NCBI GenBank assembly: GCA_030650095.1
Contig: JAUSEE010000002.1
Location: 6,711 to 70,710 of the forward strand
Reading direction: 5' to 3'
Source: Candidatus Buchananbacteria bacterium
GTDB taxonomy: Bacteria; Patescibacteriota; Patescibacteriia; 2-01-FULL-39-33
Length of the DNA: 64,000 nt
In this document: positions 92 through 35,535 of the stretch, piece by piece
Layout of the letters: each line of letters begins with the position of its first letter
Numbering within the stretch: position 1 is the stretch's first letter
The notes under the pieces: generated by a model
The model's input: only the letters and a program-made list of their open reading frames with translations
What the model was told of the DNA's origin: nothing
Databases searched by the model: none
Position numbers and translations under genes: made by a program

Positions 92-196
92 GGGATGACA
101 ATGAAGAAGAACGTCATTGCGAGGCACGAAGCAATCCCATAGTTGTAGAGTACGAGGTTGCTTCCCCCGCATCAAGTGCGGGGTCGCAATGACAGG
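92..196 (+). repeat. Family-1 nested-palindrome element, copy 1
   Basis: gtcattgcgag...gaagcaatcc...gtacgag gttgcttc...ccccgcatcaagtgcgggg tcgcaatgac: outer 10-bp inverted repeat enclosing two inner hairpins. Confidence 0.7.
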
Positions 197-1146: not shown

Positions 1147-1229
1147 GTCATTGCGAACGTAGTGAAGCAATCCCATGGCTATAGAATACGAGATTGCTTC
1201 CCCCGCATCAAATGCGGGGTCGCAATGAC
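1147..1229 (+). repeat. Family-1 nested-palindrome element, copy 2
   Basis: gtcattgcga acgtagt gaagcaatc ccatggctatagaatacgag attgcttc ccccgcatcaaatgcgggg tcgcaatgac; same architecture as copy 1. Confidence 0.75.
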
Positions 1230-3821: not shown

Positions 3822-6185
3822 ATGGGGGATAATTCAAATAACTGGCTCGGTTCCGAGGCCAGTGTTTTAGAATCTAATAAAGTTGCCAAAATAAGGAAAA
3901 GAGACGGCCGAATTGTTGATTTTAATAAGGATAAGATAAAACAGGCCATTATTAAGGCCTTTACCGCCTCCAATAATTATGATTATGAACTGGTAGACAG
4001 GCTGGTTGTGAGTGTGGTTAACATTTTAAACAACCGCTACGGGCTAGAAAACATACCTTCTATCGAAGATATCCAGAATATCGTAGAAATCATCCTGATT
4101 CATAACGATCTGCCGGCGGTAGCCAAAAATTACATTATTTACCGTGAAGAAAGATCCAAATCGCGTGAAAGGCAAAAGGCTATTTTAGACGGTTTAACCA
4201 CCAGCTTGCCTTATTCTGATAACGCCCTGAAGGTTATGGCCAAAAGGTATTTAAAAAGGGATCAGGATGACAAAGTTATTGAAACTCCCGAGCAAATGAT
4301 GGAACGGGTATCCCTGGCTTTGGCGGAAGTGGAGAAGAAATACGGCAAAAATGACGAGCAAGTGGCGCGAGTGAAAGACAGTTTTTATGAGGTTTTAAGC
4401 AAATTTGAGTTTACCCCGGCCGGACGAACCCTAAACAACGCCGGCACCGATTTACCGGTGGTGGCCAATTGCATTGTCTTAAATATCCAAGATTCCATGG
4501 ACAGTATTTTTGATACCCTCAAAGACGCCGCTCTTTTACAGCAGTCCGGCTCCGGCTTGGGCTTTCCTTTCCACACCCTAAGGCCGGCCGGTTCTCGGGC
4601 CAAAAAATCACGCGGGGTGGCTTCCGGGCCGGTTTCTTTTCTGAAAGTCTATGATCGGGCCTTTGGCGTGATAAAACAGCAGAATCGCCACGGCGCCAAT
4701 ATGGCAGTGATGAATGTGGAGCATCCGGATATTTTGGAGTTTATCCATTGCAAAGCCCGGGAAGGCGAGATTAAGAATTTTAATATTTCTGTGGGCTTAA
4801 CCGATAGGTTTATGGAAGCGGTGGAAAAAAACGATCCCAACACTTGGGTGCCGCGCTTCAACGGCCAGGATCATTCCTTGCACAGAGTGGTACGCGATGA
4901 GCAGGACACTATTTTGGACATCGTGGAAGAAAAAATGACCGCTCGCGAGATTTTTCAAGAAATCATTTCGGCCGCTTGGTCCAACGGCGAGCCGGGCTGT
5001 GTTTTCTTGGACACGGTGAACAAGGTTAACCCTTTGCCGGGCTTGGGCCGGATAGAAGCCTGCAACCCCTGCGGTGAGCAATTCTTGCACGATGGCGATG
5101 TCTGTAATTTGGGTTCTATTAATTTGGAAAAATTTGCTAGTAGCGGCGAAGTGTTGTGGGACAGATTGAAAGAAGTTACCAAAATAGCCGTGCGCATGCT
5201 GGACAATGTCACCGATATCACTAAGTACCAATCAGAAAAAGTAAATCAGGTTTCCAAAGACAATCGGCGTATCGGCTTGGGCATCATGGGCTTTGCCGAC
5301 ATGCTTTATAAACTGGGCATTGGCTACAACACGCCCGAAGGCTTTGCTATGGGCGAAAAAATAATGAAAACCATCCAGGATTCCTCTCACCAGATGTCTC
5401 AAGAATTAGCCGACGAAAAAGGACTCTTTAAAAATTATAATCATTCCGTTTACCCAGGCAGGAATGTCAGAATGAGAAATGCCGCCCTCACCAATATCGC
5501 CCCGACCGGCACGATTTCCATGACCATGGATGTCTCGGGCGGAGTGGAGCCTTATTTTGCCTTGGCCTATTATTACAAACATGTTTTGGGAGGCGATGTG
5601 GAGCTTATTTATTTCAACAAGCATTTGGAAAAAACCTTAAAGGAACAAGGCTGTTGGTCGGAAACAGTTAAACAGCAAATAATCCAAAACGGCACCCTGC
5701 AGAATGTGGCCGGCATTCCGGAAAATATCAAAAAAATATTCGTTACTTCCATGGATATTTCCGCCTCCGATCATATTAAAATGCAATCGGCGTTCCAAAA
5801 ATATTGCGACAACGCTATTTCTAAAACTGTTAACTTCCCTTATTCGGCCAGCAAAAATGACGTGATGGAAGGCTACCTGATGGCTTGGAGAATGGGTTGC
5901 AAGGGCTGTACTGTTTATCGCGACGGCTCCAGGGACAAGCAAATACTCAATATCGCCAAAGACAAAGAAACCAGCGAACCCTTAAACCCCAACGCCGGTT
6001 TAACCGATGAAATGCCCATGGTTAATACCGGCAATGTGGTTACTTCCGGCTTTAGTCCTCTTAAGCCTAATGATAAAAATGGAGTCATAGCCGGCGGAAT
6101 TTGTCCGGAATGCGGGGGATCGCTTATGATTTTAGAAGGTTGTTATACTTGCTCCAGTTGCGGAGTTAGCGCCTGCTCTATTTAA
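3822..6185 (+). CDS. nrdJ: Adenosylcobalamin-dependent (class II) ribonucleotide reductase with N-terminal ATP-cone and C-terminal Zn-ribbon
   Basis: ATP-cone VAKIRKRDGRIVDFNKDKIKQAI; RNR core with active-site Cys in CNLGSINL and a second conserved Cys in EACNPCGEQ; C-terminal CPECGG...CYTCSSCG. Confidence 0.9.
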   Translation: MGDNSNNWLGSEASVLESNKVAKIRKRDGRIVDFNKDKIKQAIIKAFTASNNYDYELVDRLVVSVVNILNNRYGLENIPSIEDIQNIVEIILIHNDLPAVAKNYIIYREERSKSRERQKAILDGLTTSLPYSDNALKVMAKRYLKRDQDDKVIETPEQMMERVSLALAEVEKKYGKNDEQVARVKDSFYEVLSKFEFTPAGRTLNNAGTDLPVVANCIVLNIQDSMDSIFDTLKDAALLQQSGSGLGFPFHTLRPAGSRAKKSRGVASGPVSFLKVYDRAFGVIKQQNRHGANMAVMNVEHPDILEFIHCKAREGEIKNFNISVGLTDRFMEAVEKNDPNTWVPRFNGQDHSLHRVVRDEQDTILDIVEEKMTAREIFQEIISAAWSNGEPGCVFLDTVNKVNPLPGLGRIEACNPCGEQFLHDGDVCNLGSINLEKFASSGEVLWDRLKEVTKIAVRMLDNVTDITKYQSEKVNQVSKDNRRIGLGIMGFADMLYKLGIGYNTPEGFAMGEKIMKTIQDSSHQMSQELADEKGLFKNYNHSVYPGRNVRMRNAALTNIAPTGTISMTMDVSGGVEPYFALAYYYKHVLGGDVELIYFNKHLEKTLKEQGCWSETVKQQIIQNGTLQNVAGIPENIKKIFVTSMDISASDHIKMQSAFQKYCDNAISKTVNFPYSASKNDVMEGYLMAWRMGCKGCTVYRDGSRDKQILNIAKDKETSEPLNPNAGLTDEMPMVNTGNVVTSGFSPLKPNDKNGVIAGGICPECGGSLMILEGCYTCSSCGVSACSI

Positions 6186-6196
6186 GTGTCACTTTG

Positions 6197-6268
6197 ATCC
6201 GCCCTGGGCGGAGAAGCAATCTCGTGTTTGATATTTGTCATTCCGACCGCAGTGGAGGAATCCCTTGG
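6197..6268 (+). repeat. Family-1 element, degenerate copy 3
   Basis: gatccgccctgggcgga gaagcaatc ... tgtcattccgaccgcagtggaggaatccc; shares 'tccgccctgggcggagaagcaatc' with the copy at 10220. Confidence 0.45.
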
Positions 6269-6299
6269 TAAAATAAAATAAATCCAGTCTATTAAAATA

Positions 6300-6480
6300 A
6301 AACACCCTTTTCTTTTTCTAGGAAAAAGAAAAGCGGTGCCAAAAGAAAAAGTCGCGAGCTGGTTAAAAATTAAGGCAAAATTTCAGCTCGCTCACTAAAG
6401 CCAATAATCCAAATAGCAACATAATATTGGCTTTTTAACGCTCGCTAAACTGAAATTTTGACACTAAATTTTTAAAGGCT
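6300..6480 (+). repeat. Conserved ~170-nt module A (structured-RNA candidate) downstream of family-1 copy 3
   Basis: Perfect 12-bp hairpin cttttctttttc-tag-gaaaaagaaaag (6307-6333) then a block homologous to 35596-35760 (agctcgct..aaagcYaataatcMaaatagcaacaKaatattRgctTtttaacRctcgct...). Confidence 0.55.
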
Positions 6481-6510
6481 CGCATTATTTTATATTAGAT
6501 TATTAATACT

Positions 6511-7026
6511 ATGATCCAAGTTTATTATGGCGATGGTAAAGGCAAAACCACGGCGGCCCTGGGATTATCCATAAGAGCTTTAGGTAGCGGCCAGAAAGTA
6601 GCCATTATCTTTTTTGACAAAGGGGGCCAGAATTATAACGAAAGGAAGATATTGGATAATCTGGGCATCGCTTATTTTTCCTATGGCCGAGACAGGCGTC
6701 TGTCTAATAACCGGTTTGATTTTTCACTTAAAGACGAAGATTTGGCGATGGCGCAAAAATCCATGGCCCAGCTTCTTAAAATACACCATGATTACGACTT
6801 GATTGTTTTAGACGAAGTTTTAAACGCCATCAGGCTGAAGATGATGCCGCTTCAAGAATTGTTGGATTATTTGGACAATAAATTGCCGCCCAATTTAGAA
6901 CTGGTTTTAACCGGCCGCGGCTTGTGGCCGGAAATAAGTGAAAGGGCCGATTTGATTTCTGAAATGAAAATGATCAAGCATTATTTTCAAAAAAAATTGC
7001 CGGCCCGAGAGGGGATAGAATACTAA
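6511..7026 (+). CDS. cobO: Cob(I)alamin adenosyltransferase, CobA/CobO/BtuR family
   Basis: P-loop VYYGDGKGKTTAALGLSIRALG diagnostic of CobA_CobO_BtuR; 171 aa. Confidence 0.8.
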   Translation: MIQVYYGDGKGKTTAALGLSIRALGSGQKVAIIFFDKGGQNYNERKILDNLGIAYFSYGRDRRLSNNRFDFSLKDEDLAMAQKSMAQLLKIHHDYDLIVLDEVLNAIRLKMMPLQELLDYLDNKLPPNLELVLTGRGLWPEISERADLISEMKMIKHYFQKKLPAREGIEY

Positions 7027-7123
7027 TCAGCTAAAAACAGTCTGCCAGAAGCGGATTGTTTTTTATTATTGTGTGTTTTCTGGACAGGAGTATAATAACA
7101 GTAATAGTTTTCCTTAGTGTTAT

Positions 7124-9043
7124 ATGGCTGGAAAAGTATCTAAAAACAGGCACTTATCAAACAATCCTAACAAGGCCGAAGTTTTTAAGTTGATTGAAAA
7201 AGAAAGGGATCATGTTTTTAATTTGATCAGTGACATTATTATTGTCGCCGATGCCAAAACTGGCATGTTAGTGGACGCTAATTTGGCCGCTCAAAAATTT
7301 TTGGGCAAAACTCTAAGCCAAATAAGGAAAATGCACCAGTCTCAGCTTCATAATAGAGCAGACCGGGCTAAATATCGTGAATCATTCAGGCAAATTGTTA
7401 AAACAGGAGGTGTCCAGGAAGATGTTTATATCTTAAATAAAAACCGAGAGCCAGTTCCTACTGATGTCAGCGCCGGTTTCATTAAAACTGGCGGGCGTGA
7501 TTATATCCAAGGAGTTTTTAGGGATGTCAGCCGCCGGAAGAAAATAGAAGAAGAATTAATCGGGCAAAAGATTAAATTTGAAACCATCTTTGATCTGTCG
7601 CCCAATTTTATTATTTATAAAAGCCAGGATGACAAATTTTTGGAAGTCAATAAAGCCTTTGTTGATTTTATCGGCCTGCCCAAAGAAAAGATTATCGGCC
7701 AATCAACCTTTGATATGATTCTAGACCAAGAGGTGGCCCAAAAAACCAGACAAGACGATTTGGAAGTTATGAAAACGGGCCGGCCAAAATTTGGCGTGAT
7801 TAGGAAATTTACCAGCCCGTTTAGCCAAAAGAGCATCTGGGGCATGTATTCTAAAGAAGCGTTTTTAGATGCCGATGGCAAGGTAATAGGCATTTTATCG
7901 GTTACCGCTGATATTACCAAGATGGTAGAATCAGAAAAAGAAATTGAACTGCAAAAAGATTTGGCTTTTGAAAGATCAGAAAAGTTGCAGGCCATTTTAG
8001 AGAATATCGGTGACTTCGTTTTTGTGATTGATCACAATTATAAAATTACCATGGTTAATAAATCAGCCTGCCAACTAGTTGGTTGTTCCTATAATCAAGC
8101 TATAGGCAAATACTATGGCGATTTTTTTAAATTTGTCTATGAGAAAAATCAGCAAGTTAATGACCAGTTTATAAAAAATGCTTTAGAAAAAGGGGTAGTG
8201 GCATCAGTGGCCAACCACACCGTTTTAATTACCAAAGACAATAAAGCCATGCCGGTTGATTTTGTGGCTTCGCCTATTAAAGATGAAAATGGCCAAATAA
8301 CCGGCGCCGTGGTTGTTTTTAGGGATATAACCAGGGAAAGAAACATAGATAGAATGAAAACAGAATTCGTTTCCATTGCTTCCCACCAGCTTAGAACGCC
8401 CTTAACCGGCATCAAATGGTTTTTGGAATTGCTATTGGATCAAAAAATAGGCGCTTTAAATGAAAAACAACTGGATTTTCTAAACCAAGTGGCGCAAAGC
8501 AACGAAAGAATGATATCGCTCGTGAGTGATCTTTTAAGCGTGTCCAGGATTGAAACAGGAGGAAAAAAGTTTGAAATCGTCAAAAGAAATATCAATATTA
8601 TCCCGGTGATCAAGAGCATTATTATGGATAATATTGTTTTAACCAAAGAGAAAAATATAAAAATAACTGGTTGTATTTATAAATTGTCCAAAATAATGAT
8701 TTTTGCCGATCCCGAACATATCAGGCAAGCCTTTCAAAACTTAATCACCAATGCCATAAAATATTCCAATAATAATGGCGTCATTGAAATTAATTGCCAA
8801 TATAAGAATAAAGAAATAATATTTTTTATCAAAGATAAAGGCGTGGGCATACCGCCAGATCAGCAAAAAAGGGTTTTTGAAAAATTTTTCCGGGCGGACA
8901 ATATTATTACTAAAGAAACCAGCGGCACCGGTTTGGGCCTTTATATCGCTAAAGCCATAATTGACGGCCATGGCGGCCGGATTTGGTTTAAGTCTAAAGA
9001 AGGCAAGGGCACGACCTTTTATTTCTCTATTCCCAAGAAATGA
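7124..9043 (+). CDS. Cytoplasmic multi-PAS sensor histidine kinase
   Basis: PAS-like repeats, H-box SHQLRTPLTGIKWFLELL, C-terminal HATPase_c (GTGLGLYIAKAII). Confidence 0.85.
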   Translation: MAGKVSKNRHLSNNPNKAEVFKLIEKERDHVFNLISDIIIVADAKTGMLVDANLAAQKFLGKTLSQIRKMHQSQLHNRADRAKYRESFRQIVKTGGVQEDVYILNKNREPVPTDVSAGFIKTGGRDYIQGVFRDVSRRKKIEEELIGQKIKFETIFDLSPNFIIYKSQDDKFLEVNKAFVDFIGLPKEKIIGQSTFDMILDQEVAQKTRQDDLEVMKTGRPKFGVIRKFTSPFSQKSIWGMYSKEAFLDADGKVIGILSVTADITKMVESEKEIELQKDLAFERSEKLQAILENIGDFVFVIDHNYKITMVNKSACQLVGCSYNQAIGKYYGDFFKFVYEKNQQVNDQFIKNALEKGVVASVANHTVLITKDNKAMPVDFVASPIKDENGQITGAVVVFRDITRERNIDRMKTEFVSIASHQLRTPLTGIKWFLELLLDQKIGALNEKQLDFLNQVAQSNERMISLVSDLLSVSRIETGGKKFEIVKRNINIIPVIKSIIMDNIVLTKEKNIKITGCIYKLSKIMIFADPEHIRQAFQNLITNAIKYSNNNGVIEINCQYKNKEIIFFIKDKGVGIPPDQQKRVFEKFFRADNIITKETSGTGLGLYIAKAIIDGHGGRIWFKSKEGKGTTFYFSIPKK

Positions 9044-9072
9044 TATTTAGAATAGTTGTAGATAATAAAAAT

Positions 9073-9216
9073 GTCATTGCGAGCCTGCCTGTCGGTAGAC
9101 AGGCTTGCGAAGCAATCCCACGGCTGTAGGATACGAGATTGCTTCTCCGCCTTCGCGAGGACTCGCTTGAGCTTCCTCGCAATGACAAGAATAAAGAGCT
9201 CATTCACAATGACATT
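9073..9216 (+). repeat. Family-1 nested-palindrome element, copy 4 (extended)
   Basis: gtcattgcgag + extra hairpin cctgcctgtcggtagacaggc + gaagcaatcc..gatacgag attgcttc ... ctcgcaatgac, then a second ...caatgaca. Confidence 0.75.
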
Positions 9217-9224
9217 TAGAAAAT

Positions 9225-9524
9225 ATGACTAAATATTATTATATTTATATTCTAACCAATAAACATAATAGAGTATTATATATAGGTGTAACCAATAATT
9301 TAATCAAAAGAGTTTGGGAGCATAAAAATAAAATAAATAACAATTCATCTTTTACTAGAAGATATAATATTGATAAATTAGTCTATTATGAATAGAGTGA
9401 ATCAGTCCATAATGCTATTGCTAGAGAAAAACAGTTAAAAGGAGGATCTAGAAAACAAAAGGTAGATTTGATAAATACTTTAAATCCGGAGTGGAAAGAT
9501 CTTTATATAGAAATGACAAAATAG
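9225..9524 (+). pseudogene. Small GIY-YIG nuclease family gene with an in-frame TAG (nonsense-disrupted)
   Basis: Frame translation MTKYYYIYILTNKHNRVLYIGVTNNLIKRVWEHKNKINNNSSFTRRYNIDKLVYYE*SESVHNAIAREKQLKGGSRKQKVDLINTLNPEWKDLYIEMTK; GIY...YIG...R...E...N layout of the short COG2827-type proteins; TAG at 9393-9395. Confidence 0.7.
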
Positions 9525-9544
9525 TGCCATTATTAGGCCTTACT

Positions 9545-9643
9545 GTCATTGCGAGCCTGCCTGTCGGCAGACAGGCTTGTGAAGCAATCCTATGGTTGTA
9601 GGATACGAGATTGCTTCGGTCGCTGTGGCTCCCTCGCAATGAC
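9545..9643 (+). repeat. Family-1 nested-palindrome element, copy 5
   Basis: gtcattgcgag cctgcctgtcggcagacaggcttgt gaagcaatcc tatggttgtaggatacgag attgcttc ggtcgctgtggctcc ctcgcaatgac. Confidence 0.75.
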
Positions 9644-9672
9644 AAGTAGAATCACTATAAATAGCAAAAGTC

Positions 9673-9718
9673 GTCATTGCGAGCCTGCCTGTCGGCAGAC
9701 AGGCTTGTGAAGCAATCC
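9673..9718 (+). repeat. Family-1 element, 5' half only (copy 6)
   Basis: Identical to the first 46 nt of copy 5, truncated 27 nt before the receiver gene start. Confidence 0.65.
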
Positions 9719-9744
9719 ATATTTATTAATTAAAATATAACATC

Positions 9745-10113
9745 ATGAAGAAAAAGATATTAATAGTGGAAGATGACAATTTTTTACAAAAAGCCCTGGG
9801 GCATGCCTTGTTAGAGAATGATTTCGATATTATTTCGGCTGTAAGCGGCGAGCAAGCAGTTCCCTTGGCTAAAAACGCTAAACCGGATTTGATTCTACTG
9901 GATATAATTTTGCCCAAAAAAGACGGTTTCGTGATAATGGAGGAATTAAAAAATGATTCGGCCATAGCTTCCATACCGGTAATATTTATCACTAATCTGG
10001 GGCAGAAGGAGGATGTTAAAAAAGGCTTGGATTTGGGAGCAAAAGGTTATATTATCAAAGCTCATTTTAAGATAGCTGATATTATTGATAAGATAAATGA
10101 AGTTTTAAAATAA
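9745..10113 (+). CDS. Single-domain response regulator (receiver only, CheY-like)
   Basis: ILIVEDD...LILLDIILPKKDGF...KGYIIK; no output domain. Confidence 0.85.
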   Translation: MKKKILIVEDDNFLQKALGHALLENDFDIISAVSGEQAVPLAKNAKPDLILLDIILPKKDGFVIMEELKNDSAIASIPVIFITNLGQKEDVKKGLDLGAKGYIIKAHFKIADIIDKINEVLK

Positions 10114-10130
10114 TAATCACATAATCATAA

Positions 10131-10250
10131 AATACGAGATTGCTTCGTTGCACTTTGTTTCGCTCGCAATGACAAGGATATAGAACTCCCTCGCAATGAC
10201 AGGAAAGAACGTCATTGCGATCCGCCCTGGGCGGAGAAGCAATCCCATGG
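10131..10250 (+). repeat. Family-1 element fragments (3' half + 5' half, rearranged; copy 7)
   Basis: aatacgag attgcttc ... ctcgcaatgac ... ctcgcaatgac ... gtcattgcga tccgccctgggcgga gaagcaatccc. Confidence 0.6.
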
Positions 10251-10286
10251 TTATAAAGCACTTACTATTAATGCAATTATAAGTAT

Positions 10287-10661
10287 ATGAAAAAAATTTT
10301 AGTCATAGAAGACGACAATATACTGCAAAGCGCTATCTCTACTGCTCTAAAAGATGCCGGTTTTAGCACGGTTCAATCTTTTGACGGCGTAGACGGATTA
10401 AAAAAAGCCAAGAAAAACAATATCAATTTAATTTTATTGGATTTACTTATGCCCAAAAAAGACGGCTGGGAAGTTTTAAAAATGCTTAAAAAAGATAATA
10501 AAACCAAGAATATTCCGGTTTTTGTCTTAACAGTTTATGAGGGCGAGAACAGCATTTCTAAGTGTTTGTCTTTGGGCGCCAAAGGTTATTTTATCAAATC
10601 AAAATATTCGCTGGATGAAATAATAAAAAATATAAAAAATGAAATTGGCAAGGCTAAATAA
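10287..10661 (+). CDS. Single-domain response regulator (receiver only)
   Basis: ILVIEDDN...LILLDLLMPKKDGW...KGYFIK. Confidence 0.85.
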   Translation: MKKILVIEDDNILQSAISTALKDAGFSTVQSFDGVDGLKKAKKNNINLILLDLLMPKKDGWEVLKMLKKDNKTKNIPVFVLTVYEGENSISKCLSLGAKGYFIKSKYSLDEIIKNIKNEIGKAK

Positions 10662-10671
10662 ATAATCAGAT

Positions 10672-10706
10672 AATAAGACGGCTTAGACTAGCCGTCTTAT
10701 TTAATA
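10672..10706 (+). terminator. Rho-independent terminator
   Basis: taagacggct taga ctagccgtctta followed by tttaatatt. Confidence 0.55.
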
Positions 10707-10808
10707 TTAGCTGTTTGGTTTATTTTTTAAATAAGTGTTATAATAATAAAAGAACATAACAAAAATTGCATAATAAAAATTAGAAATTAATTAAATATTT
10801 GTTTTAAT

Positions 10809-11465
10809 TTGATAATTTTTATGTTTAGAAAATATTTCATTATTTTAACCGTTTATTTAATCGGTTTGGCTTCTTTGGCGATCATAGTGGCTTGGATTTT
10901 TGATATTACTGTGGTTTTATCTATTTTGCCTGGCTTTATCACTATAAAATTCAGTACCGCCTTAGCTTTCTTTTTAAGCTCGCTTATCTTGTATTTTGCT
11001 TATTATTCCCCTCAAGGCAGGTTTGCCAATCTGAATTTAATTATTGTTTCATTTTCCATCTTAATTATTTGGATTATGATGATAACAATTTTAGTTTCTA
11101 TTATTTTTGGTTTCAAAAGCGGTATAGAAAATTTGTTTATTATTGATACAACCATAGCTACTAACCCCTATGTACCCGGGAGACCATCACTAGGCACTAT
11201 AGTCGCTTTTTTACTCATTACCATTTTAGGCCTTAATATTTTTTACGAAGGAAAGTGGAAAAATCAGCTATTTTTATTTCTTGGATCTTTAGTGTTTCTA
11301 ATCGGAGCAGTGTCTAAGATCGGCCTAATATTGGCCGTGCCTGTTTTGTATTATGACGTTCCTTCTATTAGCAATGCTATTTCCATACCGGCCAGCATTC
11401 TTTTTATGTTTATCGGGCTGGCCTTTTCTCTGCTTTATAAAATAAATCCCAAACGCCAAGCATGA
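10809..11465 (+). CDS. Polytopic membrane protein translationally coupled to the downstream histidine kinase
   Basis: 218 aa, ~6 TM helices; its stop overlaps the HK start (ATGA at 11462-11465). Confidence 0.5.
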   Translation: MIIFMFRKYFIILTVYLIGLASLAIIVAWIFDITVVLSILPGFITIKFSTALAFFLSSLILYFAYYSPQGRFANLNLIIVSFSILIIWIMMITILVSIIFGFKSGIENLFIIDTTIATNPYVPGRPSLGTIVAFLLITILGLNIFYEGKWKNQLFLFLGSLVFLIGAVSKIGLILAVPVLYYDVPSISNAISIPASILFMFIGLAFSLLYKINPKRQA

Positions 11466-13684
11466 AATTATTCACTCAATTAGTTACATTATTCATAGGC
11501 TTAACCCTTATTCCTTTAATATTTGTCGGCTTGCTTACTTATGCCAATACCAAAGGCGTTATTACTGATCAGATAATGGCTCAGTTGGTTTCTATTGCTG
11601 ATATTAAGAAAAATCAGATGAACCAGGTTATTGATGCTTATCTGGCAGATGTGGAAGAGTTAGCTTTACGAAATTATTTGCGCCTTAATTTAGAGGAGTA
11701 TAATCAAAATCCCACCATCGAACTGGCCTCGTCTATTGAAGCTAATATTTTCGATAGCTTGATATCTTCCCCTGAAATTGTTTCTATTGCCATTAAAGAT
11801 TCAAAAGGAAAAACAGTAGCTTCTGTGGGGGATGATTATGTGGAGCCGTTAGTAAACACAAAACAGTCGCCGGCTATAGAGAATATTTTTATGAATAGCC
11901 AAGGCATTCCTCGCGTTTTGCTTAGAAGTCCTATTATTGTAAATAATTCTACTATCGGATCCGTTGAGGTAGTAAGCAAAATTGATCCCTTTCGTATAAT
12001 AGCCGGTGATTATTCGGGCTTAGGCCAGTCGGGCGAGGTTTTAATAGCCAAGAAAAACGAAGCTGGTGATGCTCTTTTTTTAACGCCCATACGCTTTGAT
12101 CAAGGTGCCGCTCTAAAGCGGATTGTTAAAAAAGACAGAACCGATGTACCCTCTACCCATGCTGTTTCCGGCGAAGAAGCCTTTTTTCTGTCTGGCATGG
12201 TTGATTATCGCGGGGTTCCTGTTTTGGCGGTTACCAGGTTTATTGACAGACAAGGTTGGGGTATTGTGGTTAAAATAGATCGTGATGAAGTTTTTCAGCC
12301 ACTTACCAGCATATTGTTAACCTTTATTGTCATTATCACTACCACCCTTTTAGCGGTTGTTTTAGTAGCGGTTTTTGTGGCGCGCGCCATAACCAAGCCA
12401 ATCAGTCAATTATCCCAGGCGGCTGGAAAATTATCCCAAGGCAATTTTACCGCGGCTATAGAAATCATAAGTTATTATCCCAGCAATGAAATAGGCGTAA
12501 TGGCTAAGGCTTTTACTAAAATGGCATCCCAACTCAAAGAATTATACAGAAATTTAGAGGCCAAAGTGAAAGAGAGGACGCATGATTTAGAAAAATTCGA
12601 ATTGGCTGTGGATAGCGCCTATGATCAAATAGTTATTACTAATCCCGATGGCTTGATCTTGCATGCCAACAAATCCATAGAAAGGATTACCGGTTTTAAA
12701 TTAAAAGAGGTTTTAGGCCGGAAAGTCGGATCAAGGGAATTGTGGGGTGGACAAATGGGACCGGATTTTTATAAAAAATTATGGAAAACAATCAAAATAG
12801 ATAAAAAAACTTTTTCCGGAGAATTAATAAACCATCGCAAGAACGGTGATAATTATAATGTGCTGGTTAGGATTTCGCCGGTTTTGGATGATAAAAACCG
12901 GGTTGTTTATTTTGTGGGCATTGAAAGGGATATTACCAAGGAAAAAGAAGTGGATAAAATGAAAACCGAATTTGTCTCGGTGGCTTCGCATCAGCTTAGA
13001 ACGCCACTCACTGCCATTAGGTGGTATGTCGAGGAAGTTTACAACGGTGAACTGGGCAAGTTAAATAAAAATCAAAAAGATTATCTTAAACAGATACTGG
13101 AATCAAATGAGAGGATGATCAGGCTGGTTAATGATCTCTTGAATGTTTCCAGATTGGAAAGCGGTCGGGTAACTGTTGAACCTGTTTTAACTGATTTAGT
13201 TGAATTGATTGGCACCGTAGTTAACGAATGCGGTATATTAGCTAAGGCTAAAAATTGCCAATTGAATTTTATCAAACCAAAAAGCAAGATATCCAAAATA
13301 AAAATAGACCCAGTTTTAATCGCGCAAGTTATAAATAATTTGGTTTCCAATTCCCTTAAATATTCCAAGTCCAGCGGTGAAAAATGTTCAGTGGTAATTG
13401 ATTTGTCTAAAAAAGACCCAAATGTTATCATTAGCGTAAAAGATAACGGCATTGGCATACCTTCTGGTCTTCAGAATCGTGTTTTTGATAAGTTTTTTAG
13501 GGCCGACAATGCCATTAAATCAGAAACCGAGGGCACCGGCCTGGGTCTTTACATTTCCAAGATGGTGGTGGAAGCATCGGGTGGAAAAATCTGGTTTGAA
13601 TCCAGCGAAGATGGAACAACTTTCACTTTTACCTTGCCGCTCTCTGGCAGTCCGGCGCGCAAAGGTGAAAAAGGCTTATCTTAA
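11462..13684 (+). CDS. Membrane sensor histidine kinase (extracytoplasmic sensor domain, HAMP, PAS, HisKA, HATPase_c)
   Basis: N-terminal TM + ~280-aa periplasmic-like domain + second TM; SHQLRTPLTAIRWYVEEV H-box; GTGLGLYISKMVV G2 box. Confidence 0.85.
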   Translation: MKLFTQLVTLFIGLTLIPLIFVGLLTYANTKGVITDQIMAQLVSIADIKKNQMNQVIDAYLADVEELALRNYLRLNLEEYNQNPTIELASSIEANIFDSLISSPEIVSIAIKDSKGKTVASVGDDYVEPLVNTKQSPAIENIFMNSQGIPRVLLRSPIIVNNSTIGSVEVVSKIDPFRIIAGDYSGLGQSGEVLIAKKNEAGDALFLTPIRFDQGAALKRIVKKDRTDVPSTHAVSGEEAFFLSGMVDYRGVPVLAVTRFIDRQGWGIVVKIDRDEVFQPLTSILLTFIVIITTTLLAVVLVAVFVARAITKPISQLSQAAGKLSQGNFTAAIEIISYYPSNEIGVMAKAFTKMASQLKELYRNLEAKVKERTHDLEKFELAVDSAYDQIVITNPDGLILHANKSIERITGFKLKEVLGRKVGSRELWGGQMGPDFYKKLWKTIKIDKKTFSGELINHRKNGDNYNVLVRISPVLDDKNRVVYFVGIERDITKEKEVDKMKTEFVSVASHQLRTPLTAIRWYVEEVYNGELGKLNKNQKDYLKQILESNERMIRLVNDLLNVSRLESGRVTVEPVLTDLVELIGTVVNECGILAKAKNCQLNFIKPKSKISKIKIDPVLIAQVINNLVSNSLKYSKSSGEKCSVVIDLSKKDPNVIISVKDNGIGIPSGLQNRVFDKFFRADNAIKSETEGTGLGLYISKMVVEASGGKIWFESSEDGTTFTFTLPLSGSPARKGEKGLS

Positions 13685-13711
13685 AATAAAATACAAAATA
13701 ATAACAAGTTT

Positions 13712-14092
13712 ATGGCCAAGAAAAAATCATACAAAATCCTGGTAGTGGAAGATGAACCGGCTCTCCAGCAAACATTGGGGGATAAAATCAAACGCGAGGG
13801 TTGGGAGTATATCCCATCTTTAAACGGCGAAGAGGGCTTAAGGACGATTAAGAAATCACAGCCTGATTTGATTATTTTGGATTTGCTTATGCCCAAAATG
13901 AGCGGATTGGAGATGTTAAAAGAAGTGCGAAAAATTTATGATAAGCAGGATTTGCCGGTGATAATTTTGACTAATTACAGCGAAGGCCAGAATGTCAGCG
14001 AAGCCATAGCTTTGGGAGCTGATATTTTCCTAGTTAAAGCCAATTATTCCCTGGAAGAAATTATTGAAAAGATAAGAGAGGTTTTGGATTAA
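13712..14092 (+). CDS. Single-domain response regulator (receiver only)
   Basis: ILVVEDEPAL...LIILDLLMPKMSGLE. Confidence 0.85.
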   Translation: MAKKKSYKILVVEDEPALQQTLGDKIKREGWEYIPSLNGEEGLRTIKKSQPDLIILDLLMPKMSGLEMLKEVRKIYDKQDLPVIILTNYSEGQNVSEAIALGADIFLVKANYSLEEIIEKIREVLD

Positions 14093-14113
14093 ATAATAAT
14101 ATCTACATCAGAA

Positions 14114-35034: not shown

Positions 35035-35442
35035 ATGGATGATTGTATTTTTTGCAAGATTATAAAAGGGGAGATACCAAGTTATAAAGTTTACGAAAAC
35101 GGAGATGTCTTGGCTTTTTTGGATATTACGCCGGTTAATTCCGGCCACACTTTGGTTATTTCTAAAAACCATTATGATAACCTTATTGATTTGCCGGAAG
35201 AGGAGGCTGGTAAGTTGATCAATGTTATCAAAAAAATAACTCCGGCGATAGTAAAGGCTACCGAAGCTGATGGCTTTAATTTGAATCTTAATAATGGTTC
35301 GGCGGCCGGACAGGTTATAAATCATGTGCATTTCCATATCGTGCCCAGGAAAAATAATGATGGTTACAAGCTTTGGCCCGGCCATGTTTACCCAGCCGGT
35401 GAAGCCGAGATTGTTTTAGAAAAAATCAAGAGTAATTTGTAG
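35035..35442 (+). CDS. HIT-family (histidine triad) nucleotide hydrolase
   Basis: HVHFHIVPR histidine triad; ends with a TAG stop. Confidence 0.8.
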   Translation: MDDCIFCKIIKGEIPSYKVYENGDVLAFLDITPVNSGHTLVISKNHYDNLIDLPEEEAGKLINVIKKITPAIVKATEADGFNLNLNNGSAAGQVINHVHFHIVPRKNNDGYKLWPGHVYPAGEAEIVLEKIKSNL

Positions 35443-35468: not shown

Positions 35469-35535
35469 GTCATTGCGAGGGACGAAGCAATCCCAGGCGA
35501 TATAAACATAAGATTGCTTCGTACCTCGCAATGAC
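35469..35535 (+). repeat. Family-1 nested-palindrome element, minimal copy 8
   Basis: gtcattgcgag ggac gaagcaatcc caggcgatataaacataag attgcttc gta cctcgcaatgac. Confidence 0.7.

Follow-up and report, generated by a model that had tools for sequence, protein, structure and literature searches.

Introduction

The closest described relatives of the locus considered here belong to the Ssn family of single-domain GIY-YIG proteins (CDD cd10448, GIY-YIG_unchar_3), most of whose genes have Ssn-related motifs (SRM) on their flanks (Chenal et al., Nat Commun 2025, PMC11893778). The 94-aa SsnA of N. meningitidis, whose cutting activity requires Tyr6, Tyr17 and Glu64, binds the NTS repeat CGTCATTCCCGCGMAVGCGGGAATCYRG only as single-stranded DNA (ssDNA) and cuts it a few nucleotides upstream; the enzyme is inactive on double-stranded DNA (dsDNA), RNA and the complementary strand, and in vivo it reduces transformation by NTS-bearing DNA (PMC11893778). 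In the present study we analysed a 64-kb stretch of DNA (hereafter the window) of Candidatus Buchananbacteria, a member of the Patescibacteria (candidate phyla radiation, CPR), which contains a block composed of a GIY-YIG gene, interrupted by a stop codon, and nested-palindrome repeats on both of its sides. We consider it most probable (at about 0.82, judged from sequence comparison) that the region 9225-9524 holds an Ssn-family gene inactivated not long ago and that the repeats are the cognate SRM of its clade.

Two aspects of the Neisseria system are important for this comparison. Mutagenesis of the NTS revealed that cleavage depends mainly on three bases located 5' of the palindrome, and binding most strongly on a C placed just 3' of it (PMC11893778). 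The idea that SRMs are mobile or propagation elements appears as a hypothesis only, in the discussion of the same paper.

Results

Family assignment of the disrupted gene

The ssn pseudogene (9225-9524, +; identified by translation, Pfam analysis and SsnA homology) has 99 codons and specifies a single-domain GIY-YIG protein. Translation of 9225-9527 (+) yields MTKYYYIYILTNKHNRVLYIGVTNNLIKRVWEHKNKINNNSSFTRRYNIDKLVYYE, a stop, SESVHNAIAREKQLKGGSRKQKVDLINTLNPEWKDLYIEMTK and a further stop, which exactly reproduces the peptide, the in-frame TAG (9393-9395) and the terminal stop of the frame (also TAG; 9522-9524, +) reported in an earlier, letters-only reading of this DNA (hereafter the original prediction). 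The read-through product matched the Pfam GIY-YIG profile PF01541 along residues 4-79 (E=5.8e-15; 55.8 bits, cut-off 22.6), which upheld the proposal of a stand-alone GIY-YIG gene broken by one nonsense codon; the 56-aa N-terminal piece by itself also matched this profile (E=2.5e-09). The only other Pfam match, T5orf172, overlapped the former and lay below its cut-off. None of the NCBIfam models was above cut-off for this protein, and a search of PDB sequences gave only marginal matches to UvrC and SLX1 (E about 0.5-1), with no solved Ssn relative among them.

A total of 5188 homologues of the read-through protein were found; the 120 best listed are mostly 95-100 aa long and 59-80% identical to it, and the named taxa among them are Patescibacteria, Chloroflexota and Candidatus Acidoferrales. 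A tblastn search of PLSDB (7.3 Gb) detected a single relative in each of two N. gonorrhoeae chromosomes (E=2e-15). The corresponding open reading frame (ORF) is the SsnA orthologue of N. gonorrhoeae: it encodes 94 aa, retains Tyr6, Tyr17 and Glu64, and has canonical NTS copies on its flanks. The two replicons in question (NZ_CP119140.1 and NZ_CP119142.1, 2.17 Mb) are included in PLSDB as plasmids, although they are evidently chromosomes; owing to this mislabelling the ssnA locus (nine NTS copies in 3.3 kb, taken from the first replicon) could be used for comparison.

The gonococcal SsnA orthologue aligned with the window protein over its full length (BLASTP: 41% identity, 91 residues, E=7e-25), and the hhalign comparison of the two profiles gave a probability of 99.7%. 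The homology criterion applied to Ssn proteins by Chenal et al. was E<1e-10 (PMC11893778); our comparison was made via the N. gonorrhoeae orthologue. Tyr8, Tyr19 and Glu68 of the window frame are the equivalents of Tyr6, Tyr17 and Glu64, and they are conserved in 100% of the 120 homologues. Taken together, the Pfam match and the full-length homology with SsnA settle the predicted fold.

The similarity to E. coli YhbQ was much more restricted: only the N-terminal 31 residues aligned (26% identity, E=2e-4), with no full-length similarity. We therefore place the window protein in the Ssn family, since its match with SsnA runs from end to end. The original prediction had labelled it as of COG2827 type, a label which we take to cover the YhbQ/UPF0213 type; a literature search for COG2827 returned unrelated papers only.

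The original prediction had also drawn an analogy with homing endonucleases. A free-standing GIY-YIG enzyme of this kind would spread through repair of the dsDNA breaks that it makes at empty alleles, and the window protein does possess the GIY-YIG catalytic domain, as well as a weak match to TIGR01453, the model of group I intron endonucleases (E=4.6e-4). However, this match reaches 20.3 bits against a cut-off of 56.05 and involves residues 7-41 only, the 99-aa protein has no DNA-binding module or extension, and there is no intron or intein in its surroundings. Moreover, only two relatives were detected in 2.9 million viral contigs, and the characterised homologue does not act on dsDNA (PMC11893778). 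We regard this possibility as extremely improbable; the protein is not a homing endonuclease, and the locus is better explained by the known Ssn and SRM system. The scarcity of relatives in viral contigs (2 loci) also led us to reject a phage origin of the nuclease.

Hairpin repeats in the window

The repeat units were identified in the window with the pattern GTCATTGCGA(G)-N(2-45)-GAAGCAATC, and their consensus is yGTCATTGCGAG-(2-60 nt, often with an inner hairpin)-CGAAGCAATCyc. The GTC and the C of AATC in this frame correspond to the bases of the NTS consensus identified by mutagenesis, and the units of the window keep both. We detected 13 units, all of which are intergenic, several being placed soon after stop codons. 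Allowing at most 1 mismatch, we counted 14 copies of the arm GTCATTGCGAG in the window (0.46 expected; none of 100 shuffled sequences reached 14), while the arm GAAGCAATC occurs 13 times (0.81 expected from shuffles). Most of the units form convergent pairs with a spacer of approximately 19 nt, and these pairs are the "nested palindromes" of the original prediction.

The ssn pseudogene is bracketed by such repeats, as had been claimed: five units and the remnant of another surround it, in the order (+,-) pair, arm remnant, gene, (+,-) pair and solo (+) unit. The first of the units (9073-9117, +; repeat search and folding) has the structure GTCATTGCGAG-[inner hairpin GCCTGTC/GACAGGC]-GCGAAGCAATC and is convergent with a unit found by the unit scan at 9137-9186 (-). 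The degenerate 5'-arm remnant at 9204-9217 (-), just before the ssn start codon, was recognised as an inverted repeat 93% complementary to 9069-9082 (its reverse complement is AAATGTCATTGTGA). Downstream of the gene, the unit 9545-9589 (+; repeat family D1, unit scan) is a direct repeat of 9073-9117 (93% over 74 nt) and is convergent with the unit 9609-9643 (-; unit scan). The solo unit 9673-9717 (+; repeat search, unit scan) ends 27 nt before the start codon of a response regulator gene. Thus, ssn is bracketed by direct repeats (about 9072-9146 and 9544-9617) that are 93% identical.

When folded as ssDNA, the unit 9073-9117 is predicted to form an ATTGC/GCAAT stem that closes the inner hairpin (-11.7 kcal/mol, z -2.5). 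Single units with a second, variable hairpin gave values from -9 to -12 kcal/mol (z about -2.5), and the composite pair 9066-9193 reached -30.8 kcal/mol (z -5.1; none of 200 shuffles was as good).

The remaining units are located at sites that lack the nuclease gene. A cluster placed between two response regulator genes consists of a unit at 10138-10173 (-), a lone 5' arm at 10190-10200 (-) and a unit at 10211-10244 (+). Convergent pairs were found by the unit scan at 113-136 (+) and 156-193 (-), and at 1147-1172 (+) and 1192-1229 (-). A minimal convergent pair of 24-nt units (35469-35535; units 35469+ and 35535-) begins 27 nt after the TAG at 35440-35442, which the original prediction had listed as the stop of a HIT gene. 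Soon after the stop of the ribonucleotide reductase (RNR) gene there is a 3' half unit (TCCGCCCTGGGCGGAGAAGCAATC, 6199-6221, +), followed by a variant unit (GTCATTCCGACCGCAGTGGAGGAATCC, 6237-6263, +). The stem of this variant (ATTCC/GGAAT) is closer to the Neisseria NTS than to the local repeat form, and its presence beside the latter suggests that two repeat forms may coexist in one genome.

The sequences just outside the (-) units are alike at 194-205, 1230-1236 and 9187-9198, with CAATGACA[A/G]GAATAAAGAG present at two of the sites. The repeated element may therefore extend approximately 12 nt past the GTCATT boundary, to about the place expected for a cut of the Ssn type. A search of the whole window against Rfam at the gathering threshold gave no match, which indicates that the repeats are not a described RNA family. 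A literature search for the repeat sequence found unrelated primer matches only.

Two contigs of an independent Logan assembly of SRR13727527 correspond to this region: L090 is identical to window 6237-9574 (0 mismatches over 3338 nt), and L089 matches window 9689-14113 with no mismatch. L090 starts in the variant unit at 6237 and ends at 9574, and L089 starts at 9689 in the solo unit. Since both contigs end inside units, the repeats fragment short-read assemblies of this genome. Many of the nuclease homologues reside on contigs shorter than 2 kb, which probably has the same cause.

Association of the gene and the repeats in other genomes

One genome per species was scanned for relatives carrying REKQ[IL]K[GA]GS or YN[IV]xKLVYY. 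At least 594 were detected, and the best 80 of these, with flanks of +/-3 kb, were used for the association counts. They originate from more than 10 bacterial lineages (Chloroflexota, Cyanobacteria, Patescibacteria, Bacteroidota/Ignavibacteria, Proteobacteria, Elusimicrobiota, Spirochaetia and others).

The analysis revealed that units are present no further than 200 nt from the gene in 73 of the 80 loci, and on both of its sides in 58. Their density was 6.6 per kb near the gene vs 0.28 per kb in the remaining flanks, i.e. about 24-fold higher. The consensus extended beyond the searched core, with T/C before GTC, G after GCGA, C before GAAGC and Y-C after AATC. In 46 loci the unit closest to the gene on its upstream side is (+), and in 36 the closest one downstream is (-); the simple layout seen most often has inverted terminal units. 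The closest intact homologues, P0001 and P0003, which come from Hainich groundwater metagenomes, have units on their flanks as the window copy does. The link between the nuclease and the repeats suggested by the original prediction is thus borne out by close homologues in other genomes.

These counts bear directly on the possibility that the repeats are generic repetitive extragenic palindrome (REP)-like, terminator or mRNA-stability hairpins of another enzyme, placed near the nuclease gene by chance. All units of the window are intergenic and several follow stop codons closely, convergent pairs fold very stably, and units are present at gene-less sites (10138-10244, and locus L091 described below), as would suit such hairpins. 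Yet the approximately 24-fold enrichment of units within 200 nt of the gene in the 80 genomes contradicts an incidental proximity, and the 5' GTC and 3' C, which are important for Ssn cleavage and binding, are conserved. We consider this explanation very improbable and retain the assignment of the repeats as the probable SRM of this Ssn clade.

At four loci (L029, L066, L080 and L083, from Cloacimonadota, Rickettsiales, Dehalococcoidales and Caldimicrobium genomes) other hairpin repeats were observed within +/-130 nt of the gene. In these forms, e.g. GTCATTCTGAAGG...CTGAAGAATC and GTCACCCCGAGG...GAGGGGTC, the GTC start is kept while the stem is changed, which suggests co-variation of enzyme and site inside one protein clade. 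Co-variation of this type has been described for Ssn (PMC11893778). In addition, some of the database homologues carry N- or C-terminal extensions that resemble translated repeats (MSLRGAQRRSNP..., ...KQSHG...).

The premature stop codon

The TAG at 9393-9395 (+; seen on translation and in contig L090) is codon 57 of the ssn frame and precedes the catalytic Glu68 of the REKQ motif. It removes Arg67, Glu68 and all downstream residues, so this copy should be catalytically dead: the frame is not intact, and Glu68, placed beyond the TAG, would remain untranslated. The window contains no second ssn copy (tblastn), and unless another one exists elsewhere in the genome, the repeats of the window are then orphaned.

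The original prediction stated that homologues carry Glu or Asp at the position of the TAG. This was not the case: among the 120 homologues the residue is mostly V (47), T (15), I (14) or S (9), while E (8), Y (6), A (6), D (6) and others are less frequent. The closest of the listed homologues (P0001, 80% identical) has Tyr encoded by TAT at codon 57, and therefore a single transversion, TAT to TAG, is the simplest path to the observed stop. Of the positions conserved in at least 95% of the 120 homologues, 36/36 are kept in the window copy, on both sides of the TAG. The inactivation therefore looks recent, and in this respect the earlier claim is probably correct.

We also considered the possibility that the gene is functional and that the TAG arose as an error of sequencing or assembly, belongs to a minority allele or is read through. 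The data are metagenomic, each highly conserved residue beyond the TAG is intact, and a look-up in the assembly collection returned no called gene for the shortened 56-aa product. On the other hand, the Logan contig L090 includes the same TAG within its mismatch-free 3338 nt (its reads are possibly the same as those behind the window). TAG is a normal, though rare, stop in the window, where the 34 ORFs of at least 200 aa end with TAA (27), TGA (5) or TAG (2). Finally, four of the 80 species-representative loci (L021, L044, L046 and L063) contain single in-frame stops, each at a different codon, which means that there is no conserved recoding site. Based on stop codon usage and the differing positions of the stops we rejected recoding of TAG, in agreement with the original prediction, and we judge a functional gene to be improbable. 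Single-nonsense knockouts of the small ssn gene recur across lineages; occasional knockouts are thus a trait of the family.

The kinase-regulator junction

The block is located between the genes of a histidine kinase and its first response regulator. The upstream neighbour (7124-9043, +; ORF and Pfam domains) encodes a histidine kinase with PAS, HisKA and HATPase domains, and an NCBI protein from a Candidatus Buchananbacteria metagenome-assembled genome matches it with 100% identity. The downstream neighbours are a first (9745-10113, +) and a second (10287-10661, +) response regulator, both identified as ORFs. The spacer between the kinase and the first regulator is 701 nt long and contains the five units, the arm remnant and the ssn pseudogene. 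A tRNA scan detected no tRNA genes in the window.

Two relatives with a similar gene order were available for comparison. In L092, the kinase is 59% identical and the order of genes is RNR, CobA-type adenosyltransferase, kinase and four regulators. The kinase stop is separated from the regulator start by 5 nt, and no unit was found in the 9.1 kb of this locus. In L091, whose kinase is 69% identical, the spacer is 205 nt long and contains three units (+,-,-) and no nuclease gene. The presence of spacers of 5, 205 and 701 nt among syntenic relatives supports insertion at the level of gene order, and the original view of an insert in a tight kinase-regulator junction is supported at that level. 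At nucleotide resolution neither a target-site duplication nor a clean empty site was found, L091 and L092 being too diverged. Recombination between the direct repeats flanking ssn would delete the gene and leave a repeats-only spacer, as in L091.

The SRM-ssn-SRM block might also be an autonomous mobile cassette resembling an insertion sequence (IS), in which the nuclease would act as a transposase and the unit pairs would be non-autonomous derivatives, by analogy with the TnpA of IS200/IS605 and with REP-associated tyrosine transposases (RAYTs). The window copy would then be a decaying insertion, and such a view is compatible with the Ssn explanation. Several observations are in line with it: (i) the orthologous junction exists with 5 nt, with repeats only, or with repeats and gene, (ii) many loci (e.g. 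L006) are bounded by inverted units, (+) upstream and (-) downstream, (iii) the gene and the repeat core occur in more than 10 bacterial lineages, with a mean protein identity between groups (62%) about equal to that within most groups, (iv) the neighbourhoods differ, as exemplified by the location upstream of pheS in L006 and between kinase and regulator here, and (v) single-nonsense pseudogenes, as expected of dispensable elements, are present in 4/80 genomes. The hypothesis was also raised in the discussion of PMC11893778.

Against this, transposition is not known for any Ssn, and the search for a target-site duplication or clean empty site failed with relatives this diverged. There is one copy in 64 kb and a single copy in N. 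gonorrhoeae, and a GIY-YIG nuclease hydrolyses DNA, with no known strand-transfer chemistry. Descent appears to be partly vertical, since 43 of 67 nearest neighbours come from their own lineage group (about 13 by chance). Differences in array length among L001-L005 could be assembly artefacts; we set them aside as evidence of unit mobility, as short-read assemblies of tandem repeats are unreliable. An autonomous cassette is therefore a doubtful, though possible, extension of the Ssn interpretation. Still more tentative, and in our opinion unlikely, is the proposal of a self-mobilising element of a new kind, mobilised by an ssDNA nuclease of the GIY-YIG type with about 95 aa, whose convergent pairs would be derivatives similar to miniature inverted-repeat transposable elements. 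If true, it would explain both the occurrence of the cassette in more than 10 lineages and the presence/absence series at the Buchananbacteria kinase-regulator junction.

The region upstream of the kinase was also inspected. In both relatives there are called ORFs between the adenosyltransferase and kinase genes (L091 111-284, 57 aa; L092 3568-3699, 43 aa), and a cysteine-rich stretch with motifs of the CxxC type is common to these spacers. With its 97 nt, the corresponding spacer of the window (7027-7123) is too short for an ORF of this kind. Between the reductase gene and that of the cobalamin adenosyltransferase, the window has a spacer (6300-6500) with a perfect 12-bp hairpin (6307-6333) and a nested imperfect inverted repeat (arms 6363-6386/6450-6475, inner arms 6397-6406/6425-6434), which is unrelated to the SRM units. 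This spacer is not a recognisable cobalamin riboswitch, since no Rfam match was obtained for 6150-7130 even at E<=1.

Discussion

The original prediction had interpreted the block as a selfish nuclease with a hairpin-DNA cassette. The broken nuclease gene and the repeats were confirmed by our analysis, and their insertion is supported at the level of gene order; the block has a better explanation in an Ssn gene accompanied by its SRM. The feature is real but largely explained, and the locus by itself carries little weight, since the gene is dead and its family was described in 2025.

Several points weigh against the reading of the block as an inactivated ssn gene with its cognate SRM. The published SRM pattern, HGTCWYN(0-2)YYVSBRHN(0-5)WNVSBRGN(0-2)RNCYNB, found 0 matches in the window and near the 80 homologues, but 9 in the gonococcal control locus. 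The enzyme used for comparison is the gonococcal orthologue, whereas the protein assayed was the meningococcal one. The probable recency of the inactivation is judged from one single sequence. Furthermore, the minimal units of 24-26 nt have little predicted stability as ssDNA (-2.2 to -3.3 kcal/mol, z about 0), and the predicted hairpin is not thermodynamically compelling in every copy. Since the published pattern misses the units, the window repeat is regarded as an SRM on the basis of the shared frame and the association with the gene, and as a distinct variant.

By analogy with the characterised enzymes, an intact protein of this clade would bind the unit as an ssDNA hairpin (the ATTGC/GCAAT stem and the 3' C) and would nick only the strand that carries the unit, a few nucleotides 5' of GTCATT. 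Possible substrates are incoming transforming DNA, replication intermediates or similar molecules, and a role in limiting the recombination of incoming DNA seems plausible. We infer the action on ssDNA from homology with the enzymes of Neisseria, N. elongata, N. wadsworthii and Wolbachia.

What the present analysis adds is that a very large Ssn clade is paired with a repeat form missed by the published SRM pattern. The REKQ[IL]K[GA]GS motif of this clade has at least 594 matches in species-representative genomes, including those of Chloroflexota, Cyanobacteria, Patescibacteria and Bacteroidota. As a consequence, the association of Ssn with repeats may have been undercounted in the published work; we found nothing further on the repeats in the literature citing PMC11893778. 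For the development of ssDNA tools, the clade with its repeat offers a new candidate pair of enzyme and site. The mobility of Ssn cassettes was left open in PMC11893778, and the three states of the junction (no insert, repeats only, repeats and gene) constitute material for testing it. It is also of practical relevance that the units break short-read assemblies of CPR genomes.

Comparison with other systems places the locus more precisely. Homing endonucleases of the I-TevI type have the GIY-YIG motif in common with the window protein; their C-terminal DNA-binding modules, cutting of dsDNA and residence in introns or phage genomes do not apply to it. E. coli YhbQ (UPF0213) is likewise a stand-alone GIY-YIG domain of about 100 aa, but it lacks the KLVYYE and REKQ-K-GSR motifs of the window clade. 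The repeats show a likeness to REPs and bacterial interspersed mosaic elements (BIMEs), which are associated with RAYTs (Y1 transposases of the IS200/IS605 type). In both cases short extragenic palindromes, recognised as ssDNA hairpins (a prediction for the window units) and arranged in inverted pairs, flank the gene of the recognising enzyme and have many gene-less intergenic copies. The enzymes differ, as an HUH tyrosine transposase acts there, whereas the nuclease here would be a hydrolytic GIY-YIG enzyme, unrelated in fold and chemistry.

The closest likeness is that to Ssn and the NTS. The two systems share (i) a single-domain GIY-YIG protein of 94-100 aa, (ii) a repeat-ssn-repeat architecture with oriented repeats on both sides, (iii) repeats that are intergenic and clustered, and (iv) the frame (C/T)GTCATT-stem...stem-AATC(C/T). 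When the Neisseria NTS (C-GTCATT-CCCGCG-MAV-CGCGGG-AATC-Y) is set against the unit of the window (Y-GTCATT-GCGAG-N-CGAAGC-AATC-Y), the 5' GTC, the ATT/AAT base of the stem and the 3' C are common to both. The two differ in stem and loop, with ATTGC-GAG...CGAA-GCAAT around an expandable interior in the window and ATTCCCGCG-MAV-CGCGGGAAT in Neisseria. In the window clade, moreover, the units occur mostly as convergent pairs with a spacer of approximately 19 nt, and the protein motif is REKQ[IL]K[GA]GSR, instead of the REKQLKKWNR of the Neisseria protein. The window copy is further distinguished by its patescibacterial (CPR) host and by being a pseudogene.

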